IMG/VR virus record: IMGVR_UViG_3300025070_000024
Span: 1 to 64,000 of that record
Reading direction: 5' to 3' (one strand)
Origin: a virus
Length of the DNA stretch: 64,000 nucleotides
This document shows, in pieces, positions 3,001 through 20,454 of this stretch. Both the position numbers and the translations under genes were made by a program. The notes below the pieces were generated by a model. It did not search any database, was not told where the DNA came from, and saw only the letters and a list, made by a program, of their open reading frames with translations. Positions within the stretch are counted from its first letter, which is position 1; every line of letters starts with the position of its first letter.

Positions 3001-6000
3001 GTCAGCCTTGAACTTCCAAGGTAAAATAATTTCATCGTAAGGTTTGGCCTTAGTGGTAGTTTCTAAAGAGTTGCCTTTCCATATAGGCTGACCTTCAGAG
3101 TTAGTCACCCATGAAATAGAGCTTTTCTGCGCTTTTGACAGCTCTTCAAAAGCATACCCTATCTCAGGAGCAATAGGTCCAGAGAAACCTAACGTGCGAG
3201 GTTTAATTACTTCTGACTCTACAATAGAGATAAGTAAGCTATCAATACGCTGAGCACTAGCAGTACCCCAGAGAGGAACTGAAAACACTTGAGTATCTGG
3301 GTCAAAGTGTAAGGCAGCCATTTCATTCATGCCGTAACCCCGATTAGCACCTTCCTCACGAAGACGTGCTGCCATCTTAACCTTATACTCTGGAGTTCCT
3401 ACACCGTACTTTTTGTAGAAGGCTACTTTTTTAGCCTGGTTTTCTATTCCTCGTGCGTTGTTATAAATGACTTTCAGGTTTTTACCACGAAGCTTTCCAT
3501 CTTTTCTAAAGGCTTTGAATACTCCATACTCATCAAAACCTGTTTCGTTTTGCAGGCCTACATCAAAGAGTCTAGAGATTTGAGTACCGTGAACAGTCTC
3601 AAGTTTGGTTTTAACTGGAACTTGTTGCTGAATTTTGAAAGTACTACGGTCTTGATCGTAACGCTTGCCTGTCAGGTTTTCTGCTACATCCTCAATCTCT
3701 TCAACAGTAAACTTCCGGACACTACCATCATCCTCATAAATGTCGATAGCTGTGTTAGCTCGACGTCCTACTTTATATGCACTTTCATGAGTAGCTCTAC
3801 CGACATTGGTAGCAACCATGAAATCATACAAGTTCATTAAACTCGTGCCTTGTATATCGCTAGGCAGCAACACAAACTCAGCACTTTTAATATAGAAATG
3901 GTGCGTACCATGATCGCCTGCTGCTACAGGTTTTCCTGGACGGAAATATCCCATCTCTTCTTTTTCTAAAGTCTGACCACTTTCTGCTTTAGCTAAAAGA
4001 CCGCTGAATTGTTTTCGGCTAATCTTACCTTCCGCTAACAAATTAAGCAGCCGCTCTCGTGGAGTAATGTACTCTGCGGCATCTGTAGTCTCTATGTTTA
4101 GATATGCGGATAGTTCTGAGTTTGGTAAAAGCTTTTTAAGTTCTGCAATGTTAGAAGCATCAGTCTTAAAATCTTTAATGAGAATTCTTTTGACTACAGT
4201 ATTACCCATAGAATCTACTCCCGGAGTATTCGGGATATCCTCTTTAGTAATACTAGGGACTACAGTACCTGGAGCGATCAATGCAGCAAGACGCTTCTGC
4301 ATATTCTTTAGGGTCGAGTTGACATCCTTTTTCCAGTAGACGCCTACGTCTCCTGTAACTGCCTGCACTGTATGTGCACGTACAGCTCTAGACTCTGCCA
4401 CAAACTTAGCGTGATATGCTAAGAACATTTGCTTTGCAGGAATATTGTTGTCTGCTTCTAAGCCTAAATGATTAGCTATAAACTCTTGGCTTGACTTGCC
4501 TGTAACATCTCCTTTAGCCAATAAGTGCGCCTTATTGAAGAACCTCAAAGTAGATATAGCTCCTTCTTGCCGAATCCTTGGTATCTCATTCCCTTCGGAA
4601 TCTGTAAATACTGTACCGTCTGGACCAGTTTTCTCATACAAATCAAATATACCAGAGTGATGCATTTGTGTTAAACCCTCCTGCATATCTCGATTCAAGG
4701 CTGCAGTAATAATTACTTCTGCATCTTTATGGAAAGCAGCTCTGTCGCCAGATCCTTTCATACTACTGAGAGGATGCTTGTCAAGCAACACATTCAACTC
4801 AGGGAACATGATGATTTTATTTGCTTGTCTCTGCGCTTCAGTTGGAAGCTCGCTAAAGTTTTCCTCTTCAATATTGTTTATGCGAGTTAGCTCTTGATCT
4901 ACCAGAGATTTGATATTGTCCTTGTAGTAGTTACGGGTATTTATAAAATGCTCTATACGCAAATCTTGTATAGGCATATCTTTTTTAGATACCCCATTTA
5001 AAAGAATCCTATTGTTTACCTGTACAGATGCTGAAGCAACTTGTATAACAGGCATAGTTTCCTTATCAGCTATTGTAGGCAGCGTAAAGCGAGAAAGCAT
5101 AATCTTCTTCCCGTTACGTTGTATGTAGGTATTATCGTTCCCATAAAGAATAAGCTGAGCTAGCTTTCGATCGCCAGGACTCATCTTCAACCATTCTCTA
5201 GGGTTCATGCTAGACCTTAGCTTACTGTGAGCGTCGTAGTAATCGACCTTCAGCTTACTTGCCATCAACGCACTGTCTCCAGACATCTGATACAAAAGAT
5301 TCTTCTGCAGATATACCGAAGCCTCTTCTATCTCTTCGTCAGTTAAGTTCTTGATTGACTTAATCTTATCGCTCAAAAGCTTAGGCATAACATAGTGCCA
5401 CCTAAGATTACCTGCAGCATCCTTACTCGTATTTTGAATCAAGTCATCACCTTGAGTCGCACTAAGCATAAAGAATTTCTTGAACTGCATCGTCTGAGGC
5501 AGCGACATAATATTTGTAGTCTTAGAAACCTGACCCGTAGCAACGCTACGCATTACATACCGCAAATGTCCAAAAGCACTGACAGGATCCATTTTGCTGT
5601 TTCCTATACCCAACTCAGCCTCGATATCTTCCATACCTGGCACTTCACTAGTAAATAAGTGCGCTGGAATAGTCATCTTTAGCTCACGCTCGAACAGTTG
5701 ACTAATTAAGTCTGCTTTCGTTTTTGTAGAATCTTCAGTTTCTGTAATCGCATCAAGTTCAGCTACAAAAGACTGGAACTTCTTTTTATTTATTTCAGGA
5801 ACGCCTTTCGTGTAGTTGTAGAACCCATTTGTCACAAGCTTAGATAAAAAGTTTTGAAGCGCATGGACTCCCATGTTCCGCTCATTACTACTAAACAAGT
5901 AGACTGTACCAAAAGCACCCTGATTTATGTTGTGCTTTGTGCTCAGGTATGTAACAGCATCTTTAGATGCAAACACCACAAACTGCTGGCGCAGCTGAAG

Positions 6001-9000
6001 CATGGTGTTCAGCTTTTGATTGTAGAAAGGGTCTTTTACATCTAAAGTTTTAATGTCCATAGACTTTAAGATGTCCTTTACATAAGGATACTGAGCTACT
6101 GACTTTTCTAATTTCTCCTTTACATCCCTGAAGTTAGGCTTGATGCCTGCTAACTCCTGATTCAGTATACCTGATATCGTATTGTGATCTATGTACTTAC
6201 GAAGTCCTAAGAACGTTTTAGTGTTACTGTCTGTATGCGTATGACGTATTGCCATAAGCTGCCTACGCAGCAATACTCCTTGAGTAGCTTTCGGGTCTAC
6301 AGTAAAACTGAACTTATCCTCGAACTCTTTCATAGAAAGATCTGCTCGGTCGTAGCTTTCCTCAGTTAAATCTGTGAGACCATCATAGGCTTCAGAAAGT
6401 TCGTTCAAGTTTTGCGCTCCAAGCTTCAACAAACCATGTGTTCCTAGCACTAATCTTTGCGCTGCTAAAAAGAAGGCTTGGTCAAACATTAAACTGTACC
6501 CAACTTCTTTTTTACTGGTGCCTGCGTTAGAATTTTTAAGAAAAATCTGAATTTTCTTTTGGTCAGCCTCAGGTAACTGATTGAATACTTGTTTTATAGG
6601 ACTCGGTCTTTTATTCGTTCCTATAAGCACCCGATAAACATTCCTTTTTAAACTGCCCAAAGTCATAGCCTGATTCCTACGTTTAGTAACAGAATGCACT
6701 TGTACTAAACGAGCAGCAAGACCCACAATAATATTGATAGCCTCTTCAGTTTCTTTAACTGTAAGACCTGACACACGCATATTCTTACCAGCCCTATCCA
6801 TAGGACTAAGCTTAGCTTTAGATTCAGACCCCCTTGGCGAAAAAGAGATTGAATCCTCGTCAGTTGTCTCTGTTCGAGCAGAAGGGGAATAAAGACCACC
6901 GTCGTCGTCATCGTCAAAGTCTATGTCGTCATAAGCCGAACCACTGTCTTCATTACTACCTGTATTAACCGAAGGGTCAATAGCTCCTCCCTGGAGTTCA
7001 GAATCATCATATTCTGTGTCTCCCTCTGTATCAGTATTGAAGAAACTGTCATCAGATGTAGAGCTAGGAGTAGATTCAGTATCTCCTTCCGTGTCTTGTT
7101 CTGAAGATGAAGATGGGATTGGGGCGATATCTGCACCTACAGGTACAATATTCATCTGCTTTACTCGGTTAGCATATACTTTACGCTCACCCGTAATCGG
7201 ATCTATAATTTCTAAAGGCCCACGGTCTCCTCGATTTGCTTTTCTTGTGTCGATATATGAACCAAACAGAAAGTTATTTGCAATAAACTCATAGGACTCT
7301 AAAGGCTCTACTTTCAATCCCTGAGCAGTAGTACCATCTTCATAAAGCGTACTTCCAAACTCTAACTGAGACATTACTTTCCCTGCACTTTTAAGCAGGC
7401 TACGTTGTTCTAACGTAGAAGAATGTCGAATACCACCAAGTAGCCTTAAAAAGTCTGACCGTCCTTCTTTTGAGGTAGTATCAGACTTCCAAGAACTTTT
7501 AACTCTATACGGCTTATTCTTCGCATCAACTCTTGGGTTGCCTTGGCCATCCAGCAGTAGCTGCATAGGATCTATACCAGCTTTATAGACTACAAGTTGA
7601 GCGCCCTTCTTATTGTTAGAAGGGAAGATTTGTATCTGATTTGTTTTGGCGTTCTTTTGACCTTCTCGTATTTCAGAGACATCCTTAAATGCATTTACTC
7701 CAGAAATAGAACGGATAACTTTATTAATCTGTTTGGCTAAATCAAAACCCTCTTGTCCAAAATCTATATCGAAATGCTCTTCTAATTGGCGCACATTATG
7801 ATCATACTCTTGATCGCTCATTTGGTGCTGTTCTTTAGTCTGAGCACCAGAAGCAATATTCAAAGTCTGCAATGCCCTAAGAATAAACCTAGAAGACGCA
7901 ATGCCTATAGAGTTTCCTTTAATAGCAGCGAACGTAAGATTCTGAGTACGACTGTCTCGAACTATTGCATAGTGAGAACCCGTCCGCAAGCCCGACCTAG
8001 TCTTTGTGTTTTCTGCTAAAAAGGTTTTAATCTCCTCATTACTAGAGTTAGAGATGTCTTTACCTGTTAAAGCACTGAAGAAAGTTGTAGCGTTTTCAGA
8101 GTCTCGTACAGAATAAACAACTTCTATAAGTTGATTCTTAGGGTCAGTAAGGACATCACCTACTATTTGTGGACCTCCCTTAATCTTTCCTTCTTTATCC
8201 AAGTAGTGCATCAGCACTCCACTGCCATAGGACTCAATCTCTAGAGAGAACGTATACCCCGCATCAGAATTAGCTAGAGCTAAAGAACCTTCGCCAAAAA
8301 CGTTTTCAAAGTTAGAAACACCAATAGACATAAGTTTATTGCCGCCAGGGAAAGTTGGAAGATTCCCCTTTACACTTTCTACAACAATCTCAACCTCGTT
8401 TCCATTTATTTGAATAGCCCTAAATATTAACCCCTCACTTCCATTTAACGCTAAGTGCTTTTGAACATCTGTCACATCAGGCTTAAGCTTACCCTCTACT
8501 TCTATGTCTAACCACAGCTTTCCAGTAGAAGTGACATTTGATGGAGTAGCTTTATCTTCTGGCACTACCTCTTTTTGAGGAGCAGGATCATTTTCTGAAT
8601 TTGTACTAGTTTCTGTTTCAGAAGAAGGAGGAGGCTGAAATTTCTTGACGCTATCGTCTTCAGTTAACTTGCCGTCAGAACTTTCTTCTGCCTGCTCATA
8701 ATCTTCTTCAGAAAACTCAGACCCTGAGTCGCTATCAGCTTCAGCAGCAGCTTCGGCTTCGGCTTTAGAATTGTCAGCATCATCGTAGTAGTTAGGGTCT
8801 TCGTTGATGCTCTCATCTATATCTTCTGTGATCACATCATCATCCTCATCTGTAACTTGAAACTTTTCAGAATTTATATCTGAGGCGTTGTCTTCGTTAT
8901 TTTCCGCACGTTTCTTAAGAGCTTTGTTTATCTCTGCGCCTGCAGTAATTACACCCTCAATAGAAGCTATGTAATTAGCCAAGCCACCATCTTCTAAAAG

Positions 9001-11661
9001 CTGATTGTGCAGCCTAATTAACGCAATGCGGTCTTCACTAAGCTCAAACAGACTAGCGACAACGTCTTGAATCTCAGGCACATTCAACTCTGTGTCTACC
9101 AGAGAAATAGCATCCAAAGCTTCGTGCATGTCCACGAGAGCATTGATACGCGCTACCTGTTCGTCTCTATTAAAATTATATTCTCCCTCAATAGCTCCCC
9201 TAGACATAAAGGCTTGAGTTAGGCTTTCTTCTTGCTCTCTAAGACGTTCTAACTCTTGCTCAGCTTCTTGAGTTTCTTGTTGTCTAGCTGCAGCTTTCTC
9301 TGCATTAATATTCTTAATAATCTTACGCTCAAGCTTTGTCTGCAGACCTTTTTCGATTCTGCGAATTTTCTCACGTAAAGCAGACATCTTTTCGATGTCT
9401 TGCATACTGATATTTAAATAATGCTGTATGCGCTGACCGCTAAGAATAGTGTCTGCATTAAGAGTTTTAATATTGTCGGCTAACGTCTGGGCTAATTTCT
9501 TTTCGCGTACATCGTATGCTTCTATATTGTACAATGTGTTTGCAATAGCCGTGTTTACTTCGGGGTCGCGCCCGCGATAAATCTCCTGGCTTCGTTCAAA
9601 AGCTGTCTTTGCAGCCTTCATTTGGTTTTCGTAAGTCTCGTAGACTTCAATTTTCCGTGCCAAGACCTCCTGATCAGACATAGAGTCTCCATCTTTACCT
9701 AGCAACTGCCGGTAATCGTCCGCAGTCATGTCATCTAGGATAGACTTAGCTTCTACTAAAGCATCATCATACCTGCCTGTAATAATTTTACTTGCTGCAT
9801 GACTAAATATTTGGTTTTGCTCAATGTCTTTCATGCGCTTGAAGTCTCCAGCTAAAGCTGCAGCATCCATATCGCGTTGAAGACCATTCTGCACTACACT
9901 ATTCTCTACTTCTGCGCGTAAAGTCTCAAGAACACCTCCGTCTTTTTCATGCAGATCTAAGATGCGCTGCATCTTTTCATCTCTCTCTAAAATTCCTTTT
10001 CGAACATCTTGGTAACCGCCTAAAAGCCGTAGCTTATAAACGTCTTTTTTCCCATCTTGGCTTTTTACTTTAGCTGCCCAAGGTGCTCCCATTATACCTA
10101 AGAGCATACCAATACCTACCTCTTTAAGTCCTTCTTTTGTACCGTATGAACCTTGAAAGCCAACGCTCAAGTTGTCCATAAAGTTGACAGTCTGAGTTTG
10201 GTTTTCTTCGTCGTACTTGTGCCGCAAGTAATCTTTTGTGCTTCGAGCAATTACACCTTGCAAACCTTCCTCTACAACACCTTCATACGCACCCCTACGC
10301 AAAATAGCTGTACCACGAGCTAGCTTACCCATATTAGTAGCTTTACCAAAGCCCAAAGTATTCAAGTCAAATGACCCTCTACTTTCTATATACTTAGGTA
10401 GAGCAGATTTGTCAACTCCTAGCCTCCGCGCTAACCGTGTTTGTTGGGAGGTACTCATTTTATTTACGTCCCTAAGACGTGTCCGAAACATTTGTCCCCG
10501 CATACGAGTACCAAATATTTTTGGAAACATCACCATATTACTGACTCCAACTAAAGCAAAGTTTGCCAAGAATGCCGCATTTGTATGAGGCTCATATTGC
10601 TCTCGTACAGCCTGTTCTTTTTCATCTGTAAATGATCCAGCACCGTACCGAGATTCGTACTCTCTACGCTCTTCTTCTACAGCTTCATTCAAGGTATGCC
10701 TAGCTTCCATAGAAGCCTCCATACCAGCTCCTGTAAACCACTGGCGAGCTACGCGACCATACGTATTGTAGCGCATCGCTTTATTTACCTGAGAAGATGC
10801 TGAGGTAATTCCTCCTGCAGCAGCTACTCTAGTAGCATCATCTCCTAAAGCACTAATTCCTCTCGCTACTTCATCTACATATTTACCGCTAATGACTCTG
10901 CGACCGCCATTAGCAATGTTTTTCATAATACGTGAACCCCTAGCAACTAAACCAGCTGTTGCTGCGGCTTGAATTCCTGCGGCGCCACCGCCTGTACCAA
11001 CGGTAACTGCACTCAAAATTGCTTCTGTTGCAACAGCACCAACTAAGAAAGACAGACCTCCAAAAAGATCATTGAAAATAAAATTAGCTCCTTGTTTTAT
11101 GCCTCCTTGGTCACCGCCTGTTTTTACTTCAAATGTCTTACCCCAATATTCCTCAGCACGATCAAGTGCATTGGTTACAGAGTTGTCGTAAAACTTAGAA
11201 AACTCTTGATTAGCAATTGCAGAACCCAATCCATAAAAAGTTCCGCCAATACCCTGACCTATATTTAAAACAGTGTCTCCAGCAAATTGCACAGACCCGT
11301 TAAATATCTTCTCAAATACTCCTTGAGCTTCTTGAGATTTGTCATACAGACGTGCAGGGTCATCAAAGGTCTCGCCTTGATCTAGACCGGTCACAAATGT
11401 GCGGTCCATCAAAGGGTCAAGATCCATTCCTAAATAACCATCTTGGTTATTCTGAATACGAAGACGAAGATCTTTATCTAAATACCCTAAGTCAGAAAAA
11501 TCAACTCCTTTAGCAACAACGTTTCCAGCTTGATACTCTTCCGCTCGAAGCTCTCGGTCAGTTTTTTGTACTGTACTAGGCTGACCTGTCAAAGCTTCAT
11601 CAACTTCTTCCGGCTTTGCATTCGTCAGCGGAATAAGCTTGTCGTTTAAATTTTCCTCCAT
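1..11661 (-). CDS. Giant virion-packaged DNA-dependent RNA polymerase (crAss-like vRNAP polyprotein), truncated at the window edge, at least 3887 aa
   Basis: ATG at 11661 (MEENLNDKLIPL...). The frame was open at every point I spot-checked down to base 1. It contains FGYRLPTQ...GDRIIVPKELVGRIGQDYDIDKL (DYDID at 2791-2805), matching the two-barrel RNAP DxDxD catalytic motif and its GYRxPTQ context in crAss-like vRNAPs. It is absent from the ORF track because the stop codon lies outside the window. Confidence 0.92.
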   Translation of the reverse strand, partial: MEENLNDKLIPLTNAKPEEVDEALTGQPSTVQKTDRELRAEEYQAGNVVAKGVDFSDLGYLDKDLRLRIQNNQDGYLGMDLDPLMDRTFVTGLDQGETFDDPARLYDKSQEAQGVFEKIFNGSVQFAGDTVLNIGQGIGGTFYGLGSAIANQEFSKFYDNSVTNALDRAEEYWGKTFEVKTGGDQGGIKQGANFIFNDLFGGLSFLVGAVATEAILSAVTVGTGGGAAGIQAAATAGLVARGSRIMKNIANGGRRVISGKYVDEVARGISALGDDATRVAAAGGITSASSQVNKAMRYNTYGRVARQWFTGAGMEASMEARHTLNEAVEEERREYESRYGAGSFTDEKEQAVREQYEPHTNAAFLANFALVGVSNMVMFPKIFGTRMRGQMFRTRLRDVNKMSTSQQTRLARRLGVDKSALPKYIESRGSFDLNTLGFGKATNMGKLARGTAILRRGAYEGVVEEGLQGVIARSTKDYLRHKYDEENQTQTVNFMDNLSVGFQGSYGTKEGLKEVGIGMLLGIMGAPWAAKVKSQDGKKDVYKLRLLGGYQDVRKGILERDEKMQRILDLHEKDGGVLETLRAEVENSVVQNGLQRDMDAAALAGDFKRMKDIEQNQIFSHAASKIITGRYDDALVEAKSILDDMTADDYRQLLGKDGDSMSDQEVLARKIEVYETYENQMKAAKTAFERSQEIYRGRDPEVNTAIANTLYNIEAYDVREKKLAQTLADNIKTLNADTILSGQRIQHYLNISMQDIEKMSALREKIRRIEKGLQTKLERKIIKNINAEKAAARQQETQEAEQELERLREQEESLTQAFMSRGAIEGEYNFNRDEQVARINALVDMHEALDAISLVDTELNVPEIQDVVASLFELSEDRIALIRLHNQLLEDGGLANYIASIEGVITAGAEINKALKKRAENNEDNASDINSEKFQVTDEDDDVITEDIDESINEDPNYYDDADNSKAEAEAAAEADSDSGSEFSEEDYEQAEESSDGKLTEDDSVKKFQPPPSSETETSTNSENDPAPQKEVVPEDKATPSNVTSTGKLWLDIEVEGKLKPDVTDVQKHLALNGSEGLIFRAIQINGNEVEIVVESVKGNLPTFPGGNKLMSIGVSNFENVFGEGSLALANSDAGYTFSLEIESYGSGVLMHYLDKEGKIKGGPQIVGDVLTDPKNQLIEVVYSVRDSENATTFFSALTGKDISNSSNEEIKTFLAENTKTRSGLRTGSHYAIVRDSRTQNLTFAAIKGNSIGIASSRFILRALQTLNIASGAQTKEQHQMSDQEYDHNVRQLEEHFDIDFGQEGFDLAKQINKVIRSISGVNAFKDVSEIREGQKNAKTNQIQIFPSNNKKGAQLVVYKAGIDPMQLLLDGQGNPRVDAKNKPYRVKSSWKSDTTSKEGRSDFLRLLGGIRHSSTLEQRSLLKSAGKVMSQLEFGSTLYEDGTTAQGLKVEPLESYEFIANNFLFGSYIDTRKANRGDRGPLEIIDPITGERKVYANRVKQMNIVPVGADIAPIPSSSSEQDTEGDTESTPSSTSDDSFFNTDTEGDTEYDDSELQGGAIDPSVNTGSNEDSGSAYDDIDFDDDDDGGLYSPSARTETTDEDSISFSPRGSESKAKLSPMDRAGKNMRVSGLTVKETEEAINIIVGLAARLVQVHSVTKRRNQAMTLGSLKRNVYRVLIGTNKRPSPIKQVFNQLPEADQKKIQIFLKNSNAGTSKKEVGYSLMFDQAFFLAAQRLVLGTHGLLKLGAQNLNELSEAYDGLTDLTEESYDRADLSMKEFEDKFSFTVDPKATQGVLLRRQLMAIRHTHTDSNTKTFLGLRKYIDHNTISGILNQELAGIKPNFRDVKEKLEKSVAQYPYVKDILKSMDIKTLDVKDPFYNQKLNTMLQLRQQFVVFASKDAVTYLSTKHNINQGAFGTVYLFSSNERNMGVHALQNFLSKLVTNGFYNYTKGVPEINKKKFQSFVAELDAITETEDSTKTKADLISQLFERELKMTIPAHLFTSEVPGMEDIEAELGIGNSKMDPVSAFGHLRYVMRSVATGQVSKTTNIMSLPQTMQFKKFFMLSATQGDDLIQNTSKDAAGNLRWHYVMPKLLSDKIKSIKNLTDEEIEEASVYLQKNLLYQMSGDSALMASKLKVDYYDAHSKLRSSMNPREWLKMSPGDRKLAQLILYGNDNTYIQRNGKKIMLSRFTLPTIADKETMPVIQVASASVQVNNRILLNGVSKKDMPIQDLRIEHFINTRNYYKDNIKSLVDQELTRINNIEEENFSELPTEAQRQANKIIMFPELNVLLDKHPLSSMKGSGDRAAFHKDAEVIITAALNRDMQEGLTQMHHSGIFDLYEKTGPDGTVFTDSEGNEIPRIRQEGAISTLRFFNKAHLLAKGDVTGKSSQEFIANHLGLEADNNIPAKQMFLAYHAKFVAESRAVRAHTVQAVTGDVGVYWKKDVNSTLKNMQKRLAALIAPGTVVPSITKEDIPNTPGVDSMGNTVVKRILIKDFKTDASNIAELKKLLPNSELSAYLNIETTDAAEYITPRERLLNLLAEGKISRKQFSGLLAKAESGQTLEKEEMGYFRPGKPVAAGDHGTHHFYIKSAEFVLLPSDIQGTSLMNLYDFMVATNVGRATHESAYKVGRRANTAIDIYEDDGSVRKFTVEEIEDVAENLTGKRYDQDRSTFKIQQQVPVKTKLETVHGTQISRLFDVGLQNETGFDEYGVFKAFRKDGKLRGKNLKVIYNNARGIENQAKKVAFYKKYGVGTPEYKVKMAARLREEGANRGYGMNEMAALHFDPDTQVFSVPLWGTASAQRIDSLLISIVESEVIKPRTLGFSGPIAPEIGYAFEELSKAQKSSISWVTNSEGQPIWKGNSLETTTKAKPYDEIILPWKFKADLGKFQDENGNIDINRIDSQLLDVFGYRLPTQAKASSSSFRVVGFSGPEVGDRIIVPKELVGRIGQDYDIDKLFTLMFDHELSDTEVDKPRLVKKASLSKSEVESYTDKELLNESLEAMDVEALEELISRARNTQIDVYHSSHRNTSEKVRKIIHEPIGDGYAEDLAEIVNAKGDLILDPMGVSYNDFTTADASAGATALGVFAVQGSLHAVINSNQLDIYLAQGNYMDVVEIGQSKGQSLMRKGQAISKAAWAKLGKDEILDDSFILLDKETKAGTVTKQFNRMMNHALDNQNNGLLGDLRISRETYPLWSMLTHHGYNQETIELIVSSSAIKNVVEVSKSRSAMTNGNYFELPKYLSNEVKIRRTEILQGFSTEKFDTLEGKELEVAISKASKEYTKWRRSNKVNFAVNKEWLVADFKGQELEERERQVYELGLLELFLKTINQGKRLAKFSDTLRRDSVFPAHRQELNMMIQDTTVYYYPIRGMNGLLNLPGEDSMAKSNGIAFGDWNKVLTLANASLKAKNKYGAKSKQYKESEGALNAFKQAEMERLRTQILQNTHPGQLADLVMNLKADGVFSLSEEHVDRTRMYDTALAYFQEQTQSVTKMHSWLRGLRSYHFARLAEKIDGSRNAREIRNSLLVDPDTNLASQITQAKKDFPSLEKNPFLKHLILNVDTSAHGYYTVEFTGDRNLNVTSQEILAGMHDLLTHKEKQVRELGKSVVLYSLVTGGGLGSRSFSKYVLAEYLEENGIRQELMNAVDKDSVFWNTEAHRQIVMHNHTLIPRAPEFGQDVVRTQEEDPTERTVIEIGFKNGSPEASQSDRDATLNFGFFRDKKSNRPHEIGKWLRTELVDGVPWDYYEAIQLQGIKGNFLHKEYSSYAQDEEGNSTGFTSEIEIERVKPSEENEDYSDNEGFSEADFDDAEEFDDGDPFGSGTDTNGTTTVEDNPAVEKAFGTEGDDKTTDSLITGTEAADYDNMDFDDDGDGSLFSASPRTRVVVPV

Positions 11662-11665
11662 GTGA

Positions 11666-13288
11666 TTAGTTTTGACCGGTAGCGTAAGTATAGTACAGCT
11701 TACCAATGATATTTCTCATCTCCGATTCACTCATTGCTTGAATAGGAATCTGTCGTCCATCTAAAATAGTTCGGACATTACGTCGACCTATCTTTGACTT
11801 CAAGTTGTACTTACCTTCATCTCTACCTTCTAAAATTCTTTCTACATATACTCCTGTAGGGCGATTGTCATTGGTAGACAAGACTAACCCAGGAACATCG
11901 TGAAATTGATACTGATCAACCTCATCGATATTTTTCATCCAAGTACCTAAATATGGGTCTCTCATCATACTAAGTATTGGATATGCCATTTTACGGGATT
12001 CAAAATTATTATTATTCATGCCCTGTTGAAGCATAAAGTCATCCATACTTTGATTTGCGAACGTTGCATAATCAGCAGGGGACATCGAGATATACCCTAC
12101 CTGTTCGCTGTTTTGCGTAGCATCGCCTGCCTTACTATTATTCATTGTAACCCGTACAATAGGCTCTCCATTGATAGGATTAATAGCAGGCGTTAAATGA
12201 GCACCTACAATTTGACCTTCATCTACAGTAGTACGTTGCTTAGTAGAGAACTTCGATCCCATAGGTATATACTCTAAGTTTGCATCACCTGAAATCATAT
12301 TGACTAAAGTCCTTTCTAAGCCGTCTCCAGGAGCATTAGTAAAATACGTAGGAATAGAAATGTCATCTGCATCAGATCCTTCTGTCACTATTGACTCATA
12401 GTTACCTGTAACATCAGGACTTCCCGCATCATTCAGATACGCATACCTTGGATCTTTAAGCCGAGTACTGTTAGAACCGCTATTGTATTTACCTACGCGA
12501 GACTCCCCAGCAGCTTTGAGTGCATTTTTAACTGCCTCTACAACTTTTGGTTGTTGTGTCTCGGGATCTAAGCGCAAGAAAGGTTTTTCAAACATGCTGC
12601 GAGCCATATCATTGATATGTATTCTCCCTGCCTGTGTACCTATCCACATATCATAGCCTTCATCCTCAATGAAATCTCGGACACCTGCACGAGTTTGGGT
12701 TACCTCCAGTCTCGGAGTAAACATTTTCTGCATCTCAGTGGTGTAGTTAGGACGAGCTGTAGGCACACCATTAAGTCGATTCATCTCTCCGTTAGGTCCG
12801 ATACTACTGAAGCCGTCTTTATAGTAGTCTCCTGAAAAAGTTACATTTTCTGCCCCTAACTCAGATACCATTTTGTTGTACATGGTCTGCTGCTCCTCTC
12901 CCATAGCCATCTGTTTCTTGATGTGCATATAGTTAGGATTACCAGTTATGTTTCTAGCTAAGTCTCGGACTTGTCTCACTCTATTGTGAAAGTCGTTTTT
13001 AGTACTAGCATCGGTAATGACATTTTTTACTTGGTCATACATGCCCTGCAAGTACACTCGATCATCATCACTAGCATTAGCCACGTCTTTAGCTAACATC
13101 TCTTGCATAGTGCTCAAAGAGTTTTGGCCTTCATAATAAGCTTTGTCCATTCTATTAAATAGATTGCCTATTGCTTCATTAGGAATACTTCCAAAGCTCC
13201 CAGGCTGGTATTGGTTTGCCAATACTGCGCCTAAAGCATTTGCAGGAATAAAAGACCTATTGCTTTGAGTCGTACTTTTTTTAGCCAT
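11666..13288 (-). CDS. Putative virion cargo/ejection protein, 540 aa
   Basis: Long ORF directly upstream of the vRNAP with a helical N-terminus. This position matches crAss-like ejected cargo genes. Confidence 0.6.
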   Translation of the reverse strand: MAKKSTTQSNRSFIPANALGAVLANQYQPGSFGSIPNEAIGNLFNRMDKAYYEGQNSLSTMQEMLAKDVANASDDDRVYLQGMYDQVKNVITDASTKNDFHNRVRQVRDLARNITGNPNYMHIKKQMAMGEEQQTMYNKMVSELGAENVTFSGDYYKDGFSSIGPNGEMNRLNGVPTARPNYTTEMQKMFTPRLEVTQTRAGVRDFIEDEGYDMWIGTQAGRIHINDMARSMFEKPFLRLDPETQQPKVVEAVKNALKAAGESRVGKYNSGSNSTRLKDPRYAYLNDAGSPDVTGNYESIVTEGSDADDISIPTYFTNAPGDGLERTLVNMISGDANLEYIPMGSKFSTKQRTTVDEGQIVGAHLTPAINPINGEPIVRVTMNNSKAGDATQNSEQVGYISMSPADYATFANQSMDDFMLQQGMNNNNFESRKMAYPILSMMRDPYLGTWMKNIDEVDQYQFHDVPGLVLSTNDNRPTGVYVERILEGRDEGKYNLKSKIGRRNVRTILDGRQIPIQAMSESEMRNIIGKLYYTYATGQN

Positions 13289-13292
13289 CGAT

Positions 13293-16200
13293 TCAGTTAT
13301 TTGTCTTCTCTTCCTCTAATCCCTGCATCTGGTTAGGGAGCATGGTAGCTGCATCATAGGGTCGCCCCATTGCTTGAATTTTAGCTACGTATTGAGGTGA
13401 AAGAACGTTTTGAATATAATCTTGTGCAAAGCTACCAACGTTTCTTGCACCTTGAGCAGAGTTTGTTCCCAGAAGAATTTCTTTCTGGTTGTTAAACTGA
13501 GTCACATCATTATTGTACTGGTTCCGCAAAGCATTATTTGCCGATCTAGCTTGGGTAGCTAAGTTCTCGTATTGTGCTTGCGCTCGTTGTCGCATTAGGT
13601 TGTCTGATGAACGCAATCTAGCATCTTGCTTAAATCGCTGAGCTAAAGCTGCCTGTTGATTAGACATACCTGAAGCCGTAGCAGGACTACTTTGCATTAC
13701 TGCACGAGCAGCATCACGATTGTCTTGAAGACTCTGACCTATATTACTCTGATAATTAAACTTAGGAATAACTGTAGTGCTAGGAGATGCAGGAGCCTGC
13801 ATATTCTCAATAGCCTTACGCATATCCCTTGTAGCTTTCATATTAGCAGCTAAAGGAACTATGCTCAAAGGAGTTTTAAAGTCTGGAATTTGTTCAGGGG
13901 CGGCTGGATCTGCTACTTCCCCATCTTCATACTCTGCACCAGAAGCGCCCTGCGTACCGCCAGTACCTTCACCGTCTGTACCAGTATCTCCATCACCTTG
14001 ACCACCTGTTTCTCCTTGTGCTAATTCTTCTTGTGCTAATGCTTCTTGATACTCTTCTTCAGACATTCCTGGTTCTCTTTGAACTGCCCTTCTTTCATTA
14101 GGAAACTGTCGAGCATCAAAATCAGGGAGCAGAGCTGCATTAGCTAAACCTGTGGCTAAGCCATTGTTTATTCCAAAAGCATTACCAAAAGTAGATACTG
14201 GCCTATTGCCAAAGAACTTAGGTGTTAAGACAGAGTGCGGAACATCCATTGTGCCTCCAGAAAACGGAAGAGGCTGACTACCACCAAAGTATGTAGAAGG
14301 TCTACCGACAGCACCACTTTGTCGTGCTAAGCCAGTATTTGCATTTCTTACAGACAATCCTCCCGGTTGCGCATACCGCTGCAAACCAGTTACTTGCGGA
14401 GTAAAGCCTCGTCCTGTACCCATAACACCTCCTCCAGGAATCAAAGTCTGTCCAGGTCTTAAAACACCTCCTGTCTTTCCAGCAAATTGACCTAATGCAT
14501 TACGAGACTGACCCGCACCAATACCCGTAAACACTCCTTGACCAGCACCTAAGTTATTTAAAGGTGCTTGATTAGGAAGAACTAGTCGATTACCTCCAAA
14601 CTGACCTAGCGCATTTCTAGTCTGTTGACTAGCCAAATACTCTTTAGCCTTAGGACCATACCCAGTAAACTTTGCAGCTCCTGCAACTTTAGGAGTAAAC
14701 CCACTTGATGCCGTAGCTTGAAAAGTAACTGGCTGTCCAGCTGCTGCAGTACCTGGCTTAAAAGTAAATCCCCGTCCAGGCTTACCTCCAGCTACTATAT
14801 TTCCACTAGTCCCAATCTGTTTTACATTAGGATTTGCTGCTGAAGCTACTTCTGGAATAGCTCTTTGAGAACTACCTAAAAGAGATGTCTGTGGTTTACT
14901 AGTATTCCAATTAAAAGACCTTGCTCCATCTTCACCAATAATGATTGTTCTAGGAGTCTTACCTACATTTTGTGTACCTCCTTTTACAGCAGTCCTTCGC
15001 CACTCACCCATAGTGGACTTAACTAGCTCTCTTCCTGTTACTGCCGCACCCGTCGCACCTTTTGCACCTTTAACAGCTCGTCCCCCCGGCATTAATAACG
15101 AACCACCTAGACTCTGAGTTGAGGCAGCTAATTGAGCACCGCTTTGGATTTCAGAGTCTTCGGTAGCATAAGATAAATAATCAGAGAAAGGAGTGTATCC
15201 CCCAACTCCTATATGAGATCCGCCTTTTTCATCTGTCCATTTTGTAGTTCCAGGGTTAGCAGCTACTTCAGCAGTTATTTCTTCTATTTTACGTTCATAC
15301 AGTCGTCGAGCTTGAGGGTCTTTTGGAACTGTTTCGTAGCGCATACTAGAGCCTGGAGCGACTCCGCCAATTTGCGATCCTGGTATTAGTCTTCGTTCTG
15401 TTTCAGGCTCAGTTATTCCTCTCTCCTCAGCGATACGCATGACGACGTCTTCAAAACCTCTGCCTGCTCCCGATGCTACACCTTCTCCGTAATGACCAGC
15501 AATATTTGTAAACCCTATACGCTGCGAATGACCGAAGCTGGGGTCAAAAAATCCTGGCCTATTTCCACCATCAGCATATCCTATATCGATATCGCTCATA
15601 TTACTCCCAAGACCGATATCTAACATCTGAGATGTTGTTCGCAGATCTACGCTAGTCTCGTAGGGTATACCTGAACCTCCACGAGCTGTAGCACTAGATA
15701 TGGACTTTTCAGGATTAGCTAAATCAAACTCCCCCTTCTTTACTACATAAGTATTTCCGTCTTTATTCCTAACGTTATAGTCGCCGTAAATATTTTCAGC
15801 ATAAATACTACCTGCATCTGTCTTGCCTGAATTATTTCCGCTGAACGGAACCCTATCAAAATTTAAAACCTCTATATCTTCTCCAATACTTTTCTGTAAT
15901 TCCTCAGGAGTTTTAGCTCTTGGTCCTGATGGAGAAGCTGTGTTTGGCTGCTCAGATGCAACACGCTCTGCTTGTGCTTCTGGAGACAGCATCTCAAACG
16001 GAGTAGTGTCTTCTACTGGCGTAGTAGATGTTTCAGCCTGAGCAGATGTTTCTGAAGGAGTATATTCAGATTGTGCAGAGTTGTACCACTCTTGCATCTT
16101 CGGCATGTTTTCCGTAAACAAAGTGTCTGACGGATCATACGTAACATCCGGACCATCTCCTGCAGTTTTTTTATACGTAGACGTCATTAAAGACTTTGCC

Positions 16201-16976
16201 TGCTCTTCAGTCAAGTCTTGAGTAACATCTATTCCGTATTTAGATAAAGGAGTCCCTTGCCCTTCATAATACCATCCTAATACCTGCGCCCCAATCTTTG
16301 GGTCGGTCGAGACTAGATCAGGATTTTTTACAAGCCTATCATCACCAAAAATTTTCTCACTAGCTGCGGCATACTGAGATTTACCTGTTAGTTGATTTGC
16401 ACCACGACCTCGGTATTTATAGCCATCACCAGGTTCAGTATTTCCTAAAGAATCTCGAGCGTATACGAAATCAAAAAACTTCTGGTCATCAGCCTTAAGC
16501 TTAGTTATCTCACTATCAGACATGTTCTTGAACAAACCTGTCTTCTCGAAAACTTCTTTAATTCGCTTGTTAGAAGTATTCTTATAGCTCTTCTCTTGCT
16601 GAGAAAGCTTTCCTCCGGATTCTTTATGAGTTACAGCAATAGCAGCTAATGCAGCGGAAGGACTATAGTTATAGTCTTTCATAAACATGTCCACTAAAAG
16701 ACTTTGATCGTCGGTAATAGTGTCGCCCCCGTCACCATACTTAGGCACAGTAGAACCGCCGTAATTCATTGCCGGTGTCTGAGCTTCTTTGCCTAGGCGC
16801 ATCTCTTCATTCTTTGCCTTCAACGCATTCAAAGCTTTCATACCCTTTTGCAGGTTAAGCTTAGCTGCATTCGCCATCGGACCTACAGGATAACGCGACA
16901 AAGTGTCCTCCTGCTTTTTAATAAAGCGACTGATTTCAGCTGCAATAGTTGCAGGAGTTTGTTTTTTCTTTCTCAT
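13293..16976 (-). CDS. Virion cargo protein with a GH19 chitinase/lysozyme-like peptidoglycan hydrolase domain, 1227 aa
   Basis: Motifs HKESGG, YARDSLGN, GDGYKYRGRGANQLTG and LVKNPDLV are typical of the GH19/phage lysozyme fold (~16270-16660). A long Gly-rich low-complexity region and a coiled-coil C-terminus follow. Confidence 0.8.
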   Translation of the reverse strand: MRKKKQTPATIAAEISRFIKKQEDTLSRYPVGPMANAAKLNLQKGMKALNALKAKNEEMRLGKEAQTPAMNYGGSTVPKYGDGGDTITDDQSLLVDMFMKDYNYSPSAALAAIAVTHKESGGKLSQQEKSYKNTSNKRIKEVFEKTGLFKNMSDSEITKLKADDQKFFDFVYARDSLGNTEPGDGYKYRGRGANQLTGKSQYAAASEKIFGDDRLVKNPDLVSTDPKIGAQVLGWYYEGQGTPLSKYGIDVTQDLTEEQAKSLMTSTYKKTAGDGPDVTYDPSDTLFTENMPKMQEWYNSAQSEYTPSETSAQAETSTTPVEDTTPFEMLSPEAQAERVASEQPNTASPSGPRAKTPEELQKSIGEDIEVLNFDRVPFSGNNSGKTDAGSIYAENIYGDYNVRNKDGNTYVVKKGEFDLANPEKSISSATARGGSGIPYETSVDLRTTSQMLDIGLGSNMSDIDIGYADGGNRPGFFDPSFGHSQRIGFTNIAGHYGEGVASGAGRGFEDVVMRIAEERGITEPETERRLIPGSQIGGVAPGSSMRYETVPKDPQARRLYERKIEEITAEVAANPGTTKWTDEKGGSHIGVGGYTPFSDYLSYATEDSEIQSGAQLAASTQSLGGSLLMPGGRAVKGAKGATGAAVTGRELVKSTMGEWRRTAVKGGTQNVGKTPRTIIIGEDGARSFNWNTSKPQTSLLGSSQRAIPEVASAANPNVKQIGTSGNIVAGGKPGRGFTFKPGTAAAGQPVTFQATASSGFTPKVAGAAKFTGYGPKAKEYLASQQTRNALGQFGGNRLVLPNQAPLNNLGAGQGVFTGIGAGQSRNALGQFAGKTGGVLRPGQTLIPGGGVMGTGRGFTPQVTGLQRYAQPGGLSVRNANTGLARQSGAVGRPSTYFGGSQPLPFSGGTMDVPHSVLTPKFFGNRPVSTFGNAFGINNGLATGLANAALLPDFDARQFPNERRAVQREPGMSEEEYQEALAQEELAQGETGGQGDGDTGTDGEGTGGTQGASGAEYEDGEVADPAAPEQIPDFKTPLSIVPLAANMKATRDMRKAIENMQAPASPSTTVIPKFNYQSNIGQSLQDNRDAARAVMQSSPATASGMSNQQAALAQRFKQDARLRSSDNLMRQRAQAQYENLATQARSANNALRNQYNNDVTQFNNQKEILLGTNSAQGARNVGSFAQDYIQNVLSPQYVAKIQAMGRPYDAATMLPNQMQGLEEEKTNN

Positions 16977-19900
16977 GAGATCATTTTCAAGAATTCGGAC
17001 GCATCAATCTTCATGTCTGTAGCATCGCTAAATACATATGGACTTTCAACTGGCTGACCTGTAATAGGATCAATATAACTTTCAGTAGCACCTTGTGTCA
17101 AAACACCTCCGCTTTCATGCTTCGGGCCTTGAACTTGATACATATTAGATGCTACCTGTTTGTAGTTGCCATTATTAGTAGCCATAGGAGGGTCTTGAGG
17201 ACTTGCCATCATCATCTCCCCACCTTCAGTTTCATATTGCGGTGCATTCATAGCACCCCCATAGTTAGCAACAGTGTTGTACCCTGCTCCCCGCTCGTTC
17301 ATTACTGAATTTACTTGCTGAGAATAGTCTGCCAAAGCTCCTCTAACTGCCTCACCTGTTTGCAGATTAGCAGCATTGTCTGCTTCATTTGCAAGACGAC
17401 GATCCCGACGCTGCTTTACCAACCCTGCGATACCTGCTATTGCCGCAATAGGAGCTGCCCCAGGTATACCTAGCATTAAAGCTCCTGCGCCACCCTTAAG
17501 TGCGTTGCCTGCAAAAGTTCCAAAGCCGTCATCTCCACTAGTCATAGTGTCAGCAGCCTTTCCAACTATTTGATTTACTCCAGCTGAAGCAAGATTCTTC
17601 AAGCCACCTGCCATTTTTGTGAAATCTGCTATTCCCGTGCCTCCAGGATTCAGTAATTGATTGACGAGCTGAGCACGTCCCTCTTGACCTGCTGCTCCTT
17701 TTACATTATCAAGCATAGAATTTAATCCTCCTGATTGTTGCATCTGATTAAAAATGCCTTCCAAATTTTGAGGGTTCATCGGTGCATTAGAGTTGCCTCC
17801 AGGAACTGGAGTAAACTCAGGAATATTTAGTGCAGGCATAGAAGCATTCATAGAGTTACTAGCTTGATCAGCCATAGAACCCTGAGATCCAAAAGGAGTG
17901 CTATTTCCTGCGCTTTGAGCTTGATCTAAAACTGGCTGCAACAAATCCTGAGAGTAGTTAGCAGTATTGCCTTGAGGATAGCTCAACATTCTGGCATTCA
18001 TACTTTGCTCTGGCAGAGGCTGATTGTACTCAGGATTACGAGGGCCAGCTGTATTTTGATTATTTATTGGACCACCAGGATATTGCCCAGTATCATTCAT
18101 ACTGAACAGAGGGAATGTGCTAGTGTCTTGATCTTGGAAAGGAAACCCAAAAACACCATTACCTTGAGGATCTCCAGCAGTAGGTTGTGCAGGTCGATTT
18201 TGAGCATGGTACGCCATGAGCTGCTGCTCATTACTCAACGTTGGGTTATTCATAATGAAGTCCATAGGCAAGTTCATCGCCCGTGGCTGCAAAATATGTT
18301 GCTTCAGTCCTTGACCTAAAGACATACCTGTAGGCACAGCTAAAGTTGTATCACCAAACTGCCCGTAATGCTCTGTAAGCTCTCCTACGTTAGCCGAGGT
18401 ATCTTGGCTCCCTAACATGCCTAACAGCTCTGACACAGGACTGCCATAATTTGCTTTTGGAGGCGCAACTCGTGGTTTGGTCATCGTACCTCCGAAAAAC
18501 CCTGTAGGTAGGTTTAGGTGTTTTTGAAGTGATGGTGGGATATCTAGCTTAGGAGGCGTAACTGGTGATACTGGTGGTTGGGTTTGAAACCTAAGCAACC
18601 CATCATTAGTTTTTAATCTCATAACACCTTCCATTGCACGTTTACCGGTTAATTTATCTGGATACCCCATACCTCGAACTCCTAAACCAGATCGAACTTC
18701 ATCCATATACTCTACAGGGTTTGTATATGCTCCAGCTTGGTTCTGTCCCGGGAATGGACGAATGGGACCATACCGAACTTGTAATTGCTGCAAGTTCTTT
18801 GGACTAGAAGCCGAAAGCTGTGGGACGTTTTCTAAATCGTAGAAATCAAATTGTCCCGTGTTTTTATTATAGTTGATATTCCCTCTGATATTGTCTAAGT
18901 CCAGACCGATACCTCTGTCCCGAAGCTGTCTTACTTGTTTCAGAGCTGATGCATAAGCATCTCTTGTCGGGAGTTCAGGTGCTCCTGGAACTGCTTCTTG
19001 TTTTTGCAAGTTCCTCATTATAGTTAAGTCATTCTGACTACGTAGTGGAGCTGCTACATTTGGCATATCATCAGCAATCTCGCTAGTCCTGGCTATGAAA
19101 TCATCAGTTGTTCCAGAATACCTGCTAGTCGGCAAGACAGCATTAGGATTGCTAAATTCTTGGTGAGGAAATTTTATTGCATAAGGACTATTCTTGAACT
19201 CATGTACAGTTCCAAAACCTCCCGATCCTAACTGTTCACCAAAGGGTGTTTTAGCATAAAGCTCCGCATCCAATCTATCCGCATGCCCCCAATTAAGACT
19301 ATTGTTTCTACTAACGCCTTCCGCAAGTTGATTGAATCCTGCCTCTGGATTCAAGTCCATTCTCATTGGATCAATAGGTTTATTGTAACCGAATAAAAAA
19401 TGAGGCTTGTCTCCAACATTTCTAAATCCCATAGGATTTTTCAGTGCAGGGTTTGCCTTATACAGATTTTTTACTCCAGTAACGCCTGCTTGCTTTAGAG
19501 CTTGTCTTGTTCCTGCTCCTGTTATACTTATTCCAGGTATTGCTCCAAGCGCATTTAATCCTGCACCAATAAAATTACCTTGACTTGCATCCCTTAAAGC
19601 ATTCTTCCCATAGTTTACCCAAGCAGCAGGGTTGACTAAATCATTTGCCACCTGCCCAGCTATAGTACCTTTTCCTTTGGCCTGATCGAACTCTACTTGA
19701 GAAGGCATTCCTTCTACGCTTGGGTCGAGGATTGTTCTAGCAGTGGTGATTGGGTTAGCTGCCATCTCTAAAAGAGACGGATTGTCCTCTATGATATTGC
19801 CGTCTTCATCTACCTCAAAATCCCCTTGGGATATACGAGGCATTGCATTTAATTGAGACAGTGCATCTGAAGCAGCTAAATTTTGCTGCAGTGCATCTAG

Positions 19901-20128
19901 ACCTCCCGCTCTTTCAATCTGTTGAGCGATTAGTGGGTTGTACCCAGAATTGGTATCAGAAGTAGCTGTTAACGGCTTTAGTGGGTCTGTTTCACCACCA
20001 AGTTCATATGTGTAATTTTTAGGACGCGGTTTTGCCTTAGAGCGATTTTTGCTCTTAGACTTTAAACCCAACACTACTTCAGCGAGGTTCCTTTTCTCAC
20101 ACCTATGACCGTTAAACTTTTTGCTCAT
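16973..20128 (-). CDS. Putative virion cargo protein with an internal protein-kinase-like domain, 1051 aa
   Basis: Kinase-like motifs LGSGGFGTV, YAIK, GIGLDLDNIRGN and FDFYDL. The C-terminal ETEGGE...GPKHESGGV motif is of the kind seen in crAss-like cargo proteins. Confidence 0.7.
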   Translation of the reverse strand: MSKKFNGHRCEKRNLAEVVLGLKSKSKNRSKAKPRPKNYTYELGGETDPLKPLTATSDTNSGYNPLIAQQIERAGGLDALQQNLAASDALSQLNAMPRISQGDFEVDEDGNIIEDNPSLLEMAANPITTARTILDPSVEGMPSQVEFDQAKGKGTIAGQVANDLVNPAAWVNYGKNALRDASQGNFIGAGLNALGAIPGISITGAGTRQALKQAGVTGVKNLYKANPALKNPMGFRNVGDKPHFLFGYNKPIDPMRMDLNPEAGFNQLAEGVSRNNSLNWGHADRLDAELYAKTPFGEQLGSGGFGTVHEFKNSPYAIKFPHQEFSNPNAVLPTSRYSGTTDDFIARTSEIADDMPNVAAPLRSQNDLTIMRNLQKQEAVPGAPELPTRDAYASALKQVRQLRDRGIGLDLDNIRGNINYNKNTGQFDFYDLENVPQLSASSPKNLQQLQVRYGPIRPFPGQNQAGAYTNPVEYMDEVRSGLGVRGMGYPDKLTGKRAMEGVMRLKTNDGLLRFQTQPPVSPVTPPKLDIPPSLQKHLNLPTGFFGGTMTKPRVAPPKANYGSPVSELLGMLGSQDTSANVGELTEHYGQFGDTTLAVPTGMSLGQGLKQHILQPRAMNLPMDFIMNNPTLSNEQQLMAYHAQNRPAQPTAGDPQGNGVFGFPFQDQDTSTFPLFSMNDTGQYPGGPINNQNTAGPRNPEYNQPLPEQSMNARMLSYPQGNTANYSQDLLQPVLDQAQSAGNSTPFGSQGSMADQASNSMNASMPALNIPEFTPVPGGNSNAPMNPQNLEGIFNQMQQSGGLNSMLDNVKGAAGQEGRAQLVNQLLNPGGTGIADFTKMAGGLKNLASAGVNQIVGKAADTMTSGDDGFGTFAGNALKGGAGALMLGIPGAAPIAAIAGIAGLVKQRRDRRLANEADNAANLQTGEAVRGALADYSQQVNSVMNERGAGYNTVANYGGAMNAPQYETEGGEMMMASPQDPPMATNNGNYKQVASNMYQVQGPKHESGGVLTQGATESYIDPITGQPVESPYVFSDATDMKIDASEFLKMIS

Positions 20129-20256
20129 CCACTGCAGCTTTCACAATCCTCAGGACTGTCGGTATTACATGTAAGTTCACCACTCTTCAGTTTGTCAGCT
20201 GTATCCTTTAATTTCTTAGGATCCAGAAAAGTCGCTTCTTTCCATTCTTCTTCCAT
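20125..20256 (-). CDS. 43-aa Cys-rich microprotein resembling the class Ia RNR C-terminal tail
   Basis: MEEEWKEATFLDPKKLKDTADKLKSGELTCNTDSPEDCESCSG*. Start and stop overlap the neighbouring genes (TAATG and ATGA coupling). It is below the ORF-track cutoff. Confidence 0.75.
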   Translation of the reverse strand: MEEEWKEATFLDPKKLKDTADKLKSGELTCNTDSPEDCESCSG

Positions 20257-20450
20257 TACTTCTTCTTTTTACGGGGTTTCACCACAGCCTTCTTAGGCAT
20301 TTTGCTAGTACTAGTCTTACCACCGTATCCATATTGAGTCATTACTGAGCTAGGAGTTTTACCTCCGCGTCTCATAGAGCCAAGCATTTTCATAACGACA
20401 TTTTTTGGGATTCCCCTTTTCATAAGGGTTTCAGCTTTTTTGTTTTTCAT
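20256..20450 (-). CDS. Small basic protein, 64 aa
   Basis: MKNKKAETL...RRGG...YGYGG...KPRKKKK. The ATG at 20450 lies just after the upstream stop, so it is preferred to the 20552 start in the track. Confidence 0.7.
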   Translation of the reverse strand: MKNKKAETLMKRGIPKNVVMKMLGSMRRGGKTPSSVMTQYGYGGKTSTSKMPKKAVVKPRKKKK

Positions 20451-20454
20451 GGTA

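Follow-up and report, generated by a model that had tools for sequence, protein, structure and literature searches.

A putative modular virion cargo protein with a predicted minimal kinase in an exchangeable cassette of a marine crAss-like phage

In the 64,000-nucleotide (nt) stretch of DNA analysed here, positions 1 to 64,000 of IMG/VR virus record IMGVR_UViG_3300025070_000024 (hereafter the window), the minus-strand gene at 16973..20128 encodes a modular cargo-type protein of 1051 amino acids (aa), referred to as P0001, as read from the open reading frame (ORF) list and its translation. No further minus-strand ORF of at least 35 aa was found within 18600-19600. An original prediction, made from the letters alone, had described P0001 as a putative injected virion protein carrying a protein-kinase-like effector, and the strings on which it relied are all present in the translation in the order given, among them GNFIGAGLNALGAIPG (aa 184-199, nt 19532-19579), RGIGLDLDNIRGN (aa 405-417, nt 18878-18916), FDFYDL (aa 427-432, nt 18833-18850) and GPKHESGG (aa 1001-1008). 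Neither the whole protein nor its parts match a Pfam-A family (E<=1) or a PHROGs family (E<=0.01). A search of whole P0001 against PDB sequences returned chance-level T4 lysozyme rows only (E>=0.19), which were rejected as noise of a Gly/Ala/Asn-rich region.

Judged from its sequence, P0001 has five parts, all encoded on the minus strand. A constant leader (aa 1-45) comes first and is followed by a cassette of about 440 aa (~63-506) that can be exchanged; next come a linker, which is disordered, and a hydrophobic helix, and a C-terminal domain, again constant, closes the protein. The basic N-terminal leader (MSKKFNGHRCEKRNL...YELGG; 19994..20128) is conserved and common to the kinase-less proteins P0008, P0009, P0121 and P0123, and when leader N-termini are aligned, the alignment stops at an x-x-x-GG motif. 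The cassette holds a conserved N-module (ANP...D..NPAAW.NYG...G.....N.LGA.P; aa 112-206, 19511..19795), represented by 43 aligned rows, and a minimal protein-kinase-like domain with flanking helices (aa 262-481, 18686..19345), which is delimited by an AlphaFold2 (AF2) model and by structure and profile matches and has its core at aa 296-436 (18821-19243). By composition, aa 500-800 (17729..18631) form a Pro/Gln/Asn/Gly-rich low-complexity linker; its length appears to vary in the wild, because a variant from a marine run has 114 nt at 18481-18596, in the linker after the kinase, swapped for 12 other letters, in line with the relative P0003, which is 34 aa shorter than P0001. A strongly hydrophobic Gly/Ala-rich segment at aa 876-906 (17411..17503; Kyte-Doolittle values up to 1.88 in a 19-aa window), followed by KQRRDRR and conserved in P0008, P0009, P0121 and P0123, is a candidate membrane-inserting helix. 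The conserved C-terminal domain (YETEGGE...GPxHExGG...SPYVFSD; aa 955-1051, 16976..17266) follows directly after ANYGG.

The kinase core contains a Gly-rich loop, LGSGGFGTV (G301, G303 and G306; aa 300-308, 19205..19231), the beta3 lysine K319 of YAIK (aa 316-319; K319 codon at 19172..19174), a catalytic loop D410-L-D-N413-I-R-G-N417 (18878..18901) and, in FYDLE, the DFG-equivalent Asp D431 (codon at 18836..18838). A word-indexed search yielded 13 relatives of P0001. When a profile made from seven cassettes (A1) was searched against 1.84 billion representatives, 108 proteins matched at E<=1e-3, 59 at <=1e-10 and 18 at <=1e-30, and the matches fell into two independent pieces, the N-module (profile ~20-140) and a core of ~190 aa (~165-357). 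This core is spanned by 64 domain rows, which became 61 after exclusion of P0003-P0005 (>75% identical to the query), the identical P0002 having been removed earlier. Across the 61 rows, G303, K319 and N417 are present in every one (61/61), G301 in 60, G306 in 57, D410 in 59 and N413 in 52; an acidic residue stands at 343, in the predicted helix C, in 49, and D431 is found in 60, the sole exception being a truncated row. In alignment A2, comprising 36 sequences that are 18-48% identical to the query, G303, N417 and D431 are invariant, and G301, G306, V308, K319 and D410 are conserved in at least 90%. The catalytic loop named by the original prediction is thus a real motif as regards the conserved D410 and N417, to which N413 can be added, but not as regards its second Asp, D412, which is Asp in only 16 of the 61 rows.

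Searches for the family elsewhere were negative within their scope: in 50,697 GenBank phage records, no tblastn match was obtained with the whole protein, with the kinase part or with the distant members P0040 and P0039, and in 185,579 prokaryote genomes, two scans with short peptide patterns gave no confirmed relative, which does not prove absence from prophages. The kinase family, with its 108 representatives, appears to be phage-only and unannotated.

For aa 262-500, an AF2 model built on the 36-sequence alignment reached a predicted local distance difference test (pLDDT) score of 84.5 and a predicted template-modelling (TM) score (pTM) of 0.80. Its topology, b1-b2-b3, aC, b4-b5, aE, catalytic loop, b7-b8, is as in kinases, and after D431 it contains only two or three short helices, amounting to ~50 structured residues. 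A model of the whole cassette (pLDDT 50.5, N-module <50, Z<=7.3) was replaced by this domain-only model on the deeper alignment. In the PDB, Foldseek placed OspG (4q5h) first (E 2.8e-4, TMt 0.52), followed by RIO1/RIO2/RIOK3, NleH2 and HopBF1, with TM reaching 0.53 on small effector kinases. With VIA-align, which compared 48,161 chains, 36 chains had Z>=8 and named kinases made up 49 of the best 50 rows (Z 7.8-9.2); NleH1 (4lrj) scored Z 9.1, with a root-mean-square deviation of 3.9 over 141 of 160 residues. The top matches in BFVD, a viral structure library, were viral kinases only.

Evidence from sequence profiles and a language model points the same way. Searched against PDB sequences, the family profile reached SteC (3.2e-4), NleH1 (6.4e-4), a Legionella Dot/Icm effector (6.7e-4) and NleH2 (1.7e-3), with one non-kinase, protein A (1.1e-3), amid them. 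In the HMMER alignment with NleH1, the Gly loop, the Lys (K319 corresponding to the VLKM lysine), the D...N loop (with a one-residue insertion) and the final Asp are all spanned. The nearest named clusters in the Atlas language model, which provide a lead only, are all kinase-clan families, YrbL, ABC1 and APH among them; a cluster with PF18762 in 80% of its members comes only at rank 28 (score 0.91). Because residues, topology and the structural, profile and language-model neighbours agree, their scores being individually moderate, a protein-kinase fold of the aa 262-500 domain is very likely. The kinase-like domain of the original prediction was in this way borne out, the AF2 and Foldseek check having given kinase folds and the residue set being conserved. 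Judged from these residues, the domain is likely to be catalytically competent, and in the model it takes the form of a minimal kinase that lacks the substrate-binding C-lobe and keeps the residues for ATP-Mg binding and phosphotransfer. As the substrate-binding lobe is absent, the target protein cannot be read from the sequence.

Several observations weigh against an active protein kinase. The structural scores are moderate, with a best Z of 9.2 where unrelated models typically reach 7-8, a Foldseek E of ~1e-4 and TM <=0.53. No Pfam kinase model matches the protein (Pfam-A, E<=1) or aa 250-450 (E<=10), and in the whole genome no match was obtained with Pkinase (PF00069), OspG_kinase (PF22303) or Kinase-PolyVal (PF18762; presumably the Pfam model of the polyvalent-protein kinases compared below), each at E<=10, or with YrbL. 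No His-Arg pair precedes D410, positions 408-409 being variable or Leu in the 61 rows, and N417 lies at +7 from D410 (+6 in most relatives) as against the usual +5. The missing HRD (His-Arg-Asp) His and Arg and the unusual D-to-N spacing would suit a pseudokinase, or a purely structural, non-catalytic module for packing or ejection, and the protein's constant parts point to a structural role as well. Such a non-catalytic module is nevertheless highly improbable, and the least likely of the rival explanations, because the ATP/Mg-binding and catalytic residues are almost invariant in relatives only 18-48% identical to the query, a pattern that is not expected without catalytic selection.

The missing C-lobe, which would normally bind the substrate, is also consistent with a kinase-fold enzyme acting on a small molecule, a lipid, an envelope sugar or RNA, or with some other ATP-using transfer. 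Foldseek neighbours also include the RNA kinase TkArkI (7vnx) and the ABC1-type Rv3197, the Atlas neighbours YrbL, ABC1 and APH point in the same direction, and cell-wall enzymes are encoded in neighbouring genes and in relatives. Against a non-protein substrate stand the best profile matches, which are effector protein kinases of the NleH/SteC type, and the best-covered structures, OspG and NleH; moreover, we know of no periplasmic source of ATP for a kinase acting on the envelope. An activity of this kind is considered quite improbable, and phosphorylation of protein is the reading followed below.

The surroundings of the kinase within P0001 and its relatives are modular. In pairwise BLAST comparisons, only aa ~63-506 are common to P0001 and P0005, P0006, P0007, P0010 and P0011, and they occur there at differing positions. 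The last ~95 aa, corresponding to the C-terminal domain, are shared with nine other proteins whose middles differ, none of which (0/9) matches the cassette profile at E<=10. P0008, P0009, P0121 and P0123 have the same leader and the same aa 815-1051 (~240 aa) as P0001 and lack the kinase, and four other proteins with the C-terminal domain carry DUF2272 in the middle. The polymorphic effector slot that had been proposed for this gene is supported, since the list of proteins sharing the C-terminal domain revealed kinase-less middles, four of them with DUF2272. The kinase core, for its part, is joined to GNAT and ART-PolyVal in P0038, to ADPrib_exo_Tox in P0050, to LysM, YkuD and DUF5872 in P0052 and to PG_binding_1 in P0035. 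The cassette is mobile between proteins and between two virion-gene slots, and such mobility marks the 'polyvalent proteins' that Iyer et al. (2017) described. In P0015 (1855 aa), two complete cassettes of N-module and kinase stand in tandem, at aa 971-1384 and 1443-1848.

The constant C-terminal domain opens right after xYGG, and aromatic-x-x-Gly-Gly motifs may mark module borders as putative seams. The domain has no match in Pfam or PHROGs, no PDB sequence match better than E 1.1 and no similarity to the neighbouring DUF6321 protein; it may be a packaging or portal-binding anchor. As a separate observation, [YFW]xxGG occurs 229 times in 120 family proteins, compared with 78 +/- 9 in 200 shuffles, and it is found within 90 aa after the core in 31 of the 61 kinase cores (commonest exactly at +28) and within 95 aa before it in none (0/61).

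The N-module is often located upstream of the kinase, and many of its 43 rows come from kinase-less proteins, some with two copies. Its aa 184-206 are mildly hydrophobic and Gly/Ala-rich, with a hydropathy peak at aa 184-188, and include the 16 residues of GNFIGAGLNALGAIPG, which the original prediction had likened to the PT-TG pre-toxin linker of polymorphic toxins. This link did not hold: the PF14449 model has no match at E<=10 on aa 1-250 or in the whole genome in six frames, none at E<=0.01 was found in 10 proteins carrying the N-module alone, and the TG dipeptide is present in only two of the 43 rows. An Atlas neighbour cluster in which 57% of members have PT-TG scores 0.83, under the tool's lead level of 0.9, and PT-TG membership was rejected on these grounds. 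It is possible that the N-module is a conserved, partly hydrophobic adaptor ahead of variable enzyme domains.

The gene belongs to an uncultured crAss-like phage, whose record of 80,916 bp is complete according to CheckV and whose terminase, portal and major head protein fall in PHROG families that are also present in related contigs with a Crass_capsid gene. The genes for TerL, portal, major capsid protein (MCP), tail proteins, Ring1, a 1383-aa protein, small basic proteins, P0001, a glycoside hydrolase family 19 (GH19) protein, a 540-aa protein and the virion RNA polymerase follow each other in this order on one strand. In the window, again on the minus strand, these include the CrAss_Ring_1 tail ring protein (25321-26121; Pfam PF24228, 2.2e-48), the 1383-aa virion structural protein upstream of P0001 (21173-25324; phrog_15100, 3e-23), a 1227-aa GH19/endolysin-like neighbour (13293..16976; Glyco_hydro_19 at 1.8e-5, just below the cut-off, and PHROG endolysin at 1.4e-19) and a giant ORF of at least 3902 aa for the virion-type RNA polymerase (1..11706; phmmer to PDB 6vr4, E 1.8e-17), which runs off the window. 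This gene order puts the modular protein beside the virion RNA polymerase, within a late structural operon, the original prediction having placed it upstream of that polymerase. Very small, extremely basic proteins (DUF6321, 101 aa; ORFs of 98 and 57 aa) are encoded at 20256-20933, between the 1383-aa protein and P0001, and could be DNA-associated internal proteins. Elsewhere, in the tail block, a 408-aa ORF (38434-39660) has a sub-threshold match to Metallophos_2, a calcineurin-like phosphoesterase (E 1.7e-4, 22 bits against a cut-off of 27).

In the near-identical L001 and L002, the gene order of the window is kept, with the kinase gene after the 1383-aa protein, and in L011 the kinase-bearing gene follows a homologue of that protein. 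The second slot is seen in L003 (~1326-3821), L005 (~7798-12009), L006 (~3662-10405) and L007 (~3780-6875), where the kinase gene comes directly after the portal gene and before that for MCP. A weak DUF192-like domain is often present at the start of these post-portal kinase carriers. The P0001 gene itself occurs in marine and seawater metagenomes, at least half of its sampled words being found in nine runs, of which five may represent the source sample; the remaining four belong to four studies.

The explanation that we consider probable is that P0001 is a modular virion cargo protein of the 'polyvalent' type with a minimal kinase in an exchangeable cassette, which would be packed, injected and put to work in phosphorylating host proteins. 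Packaging and injection, and with them an action before phage gene expression as the original prediction had it, are proposed here from the gene position and from analogy with the cargo of crAss001. P0001 would be made late in infection and, as with crAss001 gp45/gp46, would be packaged into the capsid or tail by way of the constant leader and/or the C-terminal domain. Upon infection it would be extruded through the tail partly unfolded, ahead of the DNA, and its hydrophobic segments at aa 184-206 and aa 876-906, together with the constant ends, might aid packaging, envelope crossing or membrane anchoring. In the host cytoplasm the kinase would then refold and phosphorylate one or more host proteins on Ser/Thr with host ATP, at about the time when the co-injected RNA polymerase starts early transcription.

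For the delivery step, the opposing points are as follows. The packaging of P0001 is argued from gene position, and a gene in a late operon could equally act in the producing cell. Searches of PDB sequences and Pfam did not link the 1383-aa protein to the muzzle protein, so that its candidacy as a muzzle protein was not confirmed, and a phmmer search of P0001 against all PDB chains found no crAss001 chain at E<=10; because of these two results, the assignment to a 'cargo slot' is positional. Parts of the gene, 18915-19645 among them, are covered by contigs that are 90-99% alike to it and come from two marine metatranscriptome libraries (5 pieces from X21, 1 from X22), the uncovered parts carrying no meaning in this mapping; since such libraries can contain DNA, this coverage was not counted as expression.

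A kinase that acts late inside the producing cell, on phage virion or assembly proteins or on host proteins, with packaging incidental or absent, would be in keeping with the location of the gene within the late structural operon. Benler et al. (2021; PMC8008677), in the part of that paper considered here, argue likewise for a HipA-like kinase encoded between portal and MCP in other gut phages. This alternative is unlikely in our assessment, as the constant leader and C-terminal domain that enclose the cassette are also found around other enzymes, the cassette travels between two slots that both flank virion components, and the fusion partners in relatives, ART-PolyVal and domains that bind or modify the cell wall, are of a sort typical of injected polyvalent proteins.

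Should both delivery and activity be borne out, packaged P0001 would show directly that a phage can inject a ready-made kinase together with its DNA and thereby have host proteins modified ahead of phage gene expression. An injected phage kinase was predicted by comparative genomics in 2017, and a demonstration in crAss-like phages was not found in the literature searched. The kinase, with ~190 residues, is a compact test object with clear mutational controls, and the constant leader and C-terminal domain round an exchangeable middle suggest that crAss-like cargo has a general scaffold for packaging and ejection. A hidden Markov model based on A2 would, in addition, give an annotation to more than 60 regions in giant phage proteins that otherwise count as 'hypothetical'.

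The original prediction had also presented the locus as a candidate new system, a claim that finds no support, since Iyer et al. (2017; PMC5512222), in the part on which we draw, had already reported C-lobe-less kinases in polyvalent proteins of phages and predicted their packaging and injection. New, on a modest scale, are a family of about 100 representatives, which is absent from the libraries' annotation and whose nearest characterised sequence relatives appear to be injected effectors of the NleH/SteC/OspG type, and the placement of such a kinase in the leader/cargo/anchor scaffold of a marine crAss-like phage. A literature search in a limited library found no paper on kinases in crAss-like cargo proteins or on crAssphage polyvalent proteins. 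One may go further and suppose both that crAss-like phages inject, by a tail/capsid cargo route, a kinase warhead swappable at Gly-Gly seams, and that such cargo kinases are the source pool of the minimal effector kinases of enteric pathogens; as a whole, this is a speculative and doubtful proposition.

The kinases of phage polyvalent proteins are among the closest known systems. In the sections of Iyer et al. (2017; PMC5512222) drawn on here, these are a monophyletic group that has lost the C-terminal subdomain and kept the active site, is found mainly in (pro)phages of Bacteroidetes and Verrucomicrobia and is likened to the T7 kinase, and for polyvalent proteins in general, cassette-like variability and packaging and injection with the DNA are proposed. 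The P0001 family is similar in its lost C-lobe and retained active site, and in its occurrence in large multidomain proteins that are encoded amid virion genes and also contain ART, GNAT and peptidoglycan-related domains. It differs in its response to PF18762, which at E<=10 matches neither the phage genome nor any of the records that contain L003, L005, L006, L007 and L011. The same sections give as marks of the clade a Glu near strand 2, a Gln in the N-lobe's final strand and an insert between a conserved His and Asp; here, by query numbering alone, position 310 is Glu in 33 of 61 rows and no conserved His precedes D410. As far as the comparison with the PF18762 model goes, P0001 and its relatives would represent either a divergent branch or a sister of that kinase group, a known kind of kinase in either case.

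Compared with canonical Hanks-type kinases, the domain differs by having no PF00069 match at E<=10, no HRD motif and no full C-lobe. It is closer in outline to NleH1/NleH2, OspG and SteC (4lrj, 4lrk, 4o96, 4q5h, 8jbi), which also do without an activation segment and GHI helices and enter their target cell as finished proteins too, in their case by bacterial type III secretion, the delivery of the P0001 kinase being presumed by analogy. Unlike the P0001 kinase, these are bacterial effectors that act in eukaryotic cells; identity to them is ~14%, and between D and N the P0001 loop has one to two extra residues. The OspG_kinase model (PF22303) has no match at E<=10, whereas the reverse search with the family profile does reach NleH1/2 and SteC (E 3e-4 to 2e-3).

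With regard to position, the nearest counterparts are gp45 (C1) and gp46 (C2) of crAss001, which are encoded between the muzzle and RNA polymerase genes and were positive in virion mass spectrometry (Bayfield et al., 2023; PMC10172136). In the main text of that paper, both are proposed to leave before the DNA, extruded in a partly unfolded state, and to form channels rather than act as enzymes, gp45 has a predicted transmembrane helix, and the word 'kinase' does not occur. P0001 resembles these proteins in its slot between tail/muzzle genes and the virion RNA polymerase, in its size of ~100 kDa and, as far as that text describes them, in a hydrophobic helix in the N-terminal third. The T7 protein gp0.7, finally, is a Ser/Thr kinase by which this phage modifies host proteins at an early stage of infection, as stated in the parts of two papers considered here (PMC5512222; PMC8008677). 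It is an early product made after entry, whereas the gene for P0001 lies in a late structural operon, so that its kinase would need to be delivered as protein.

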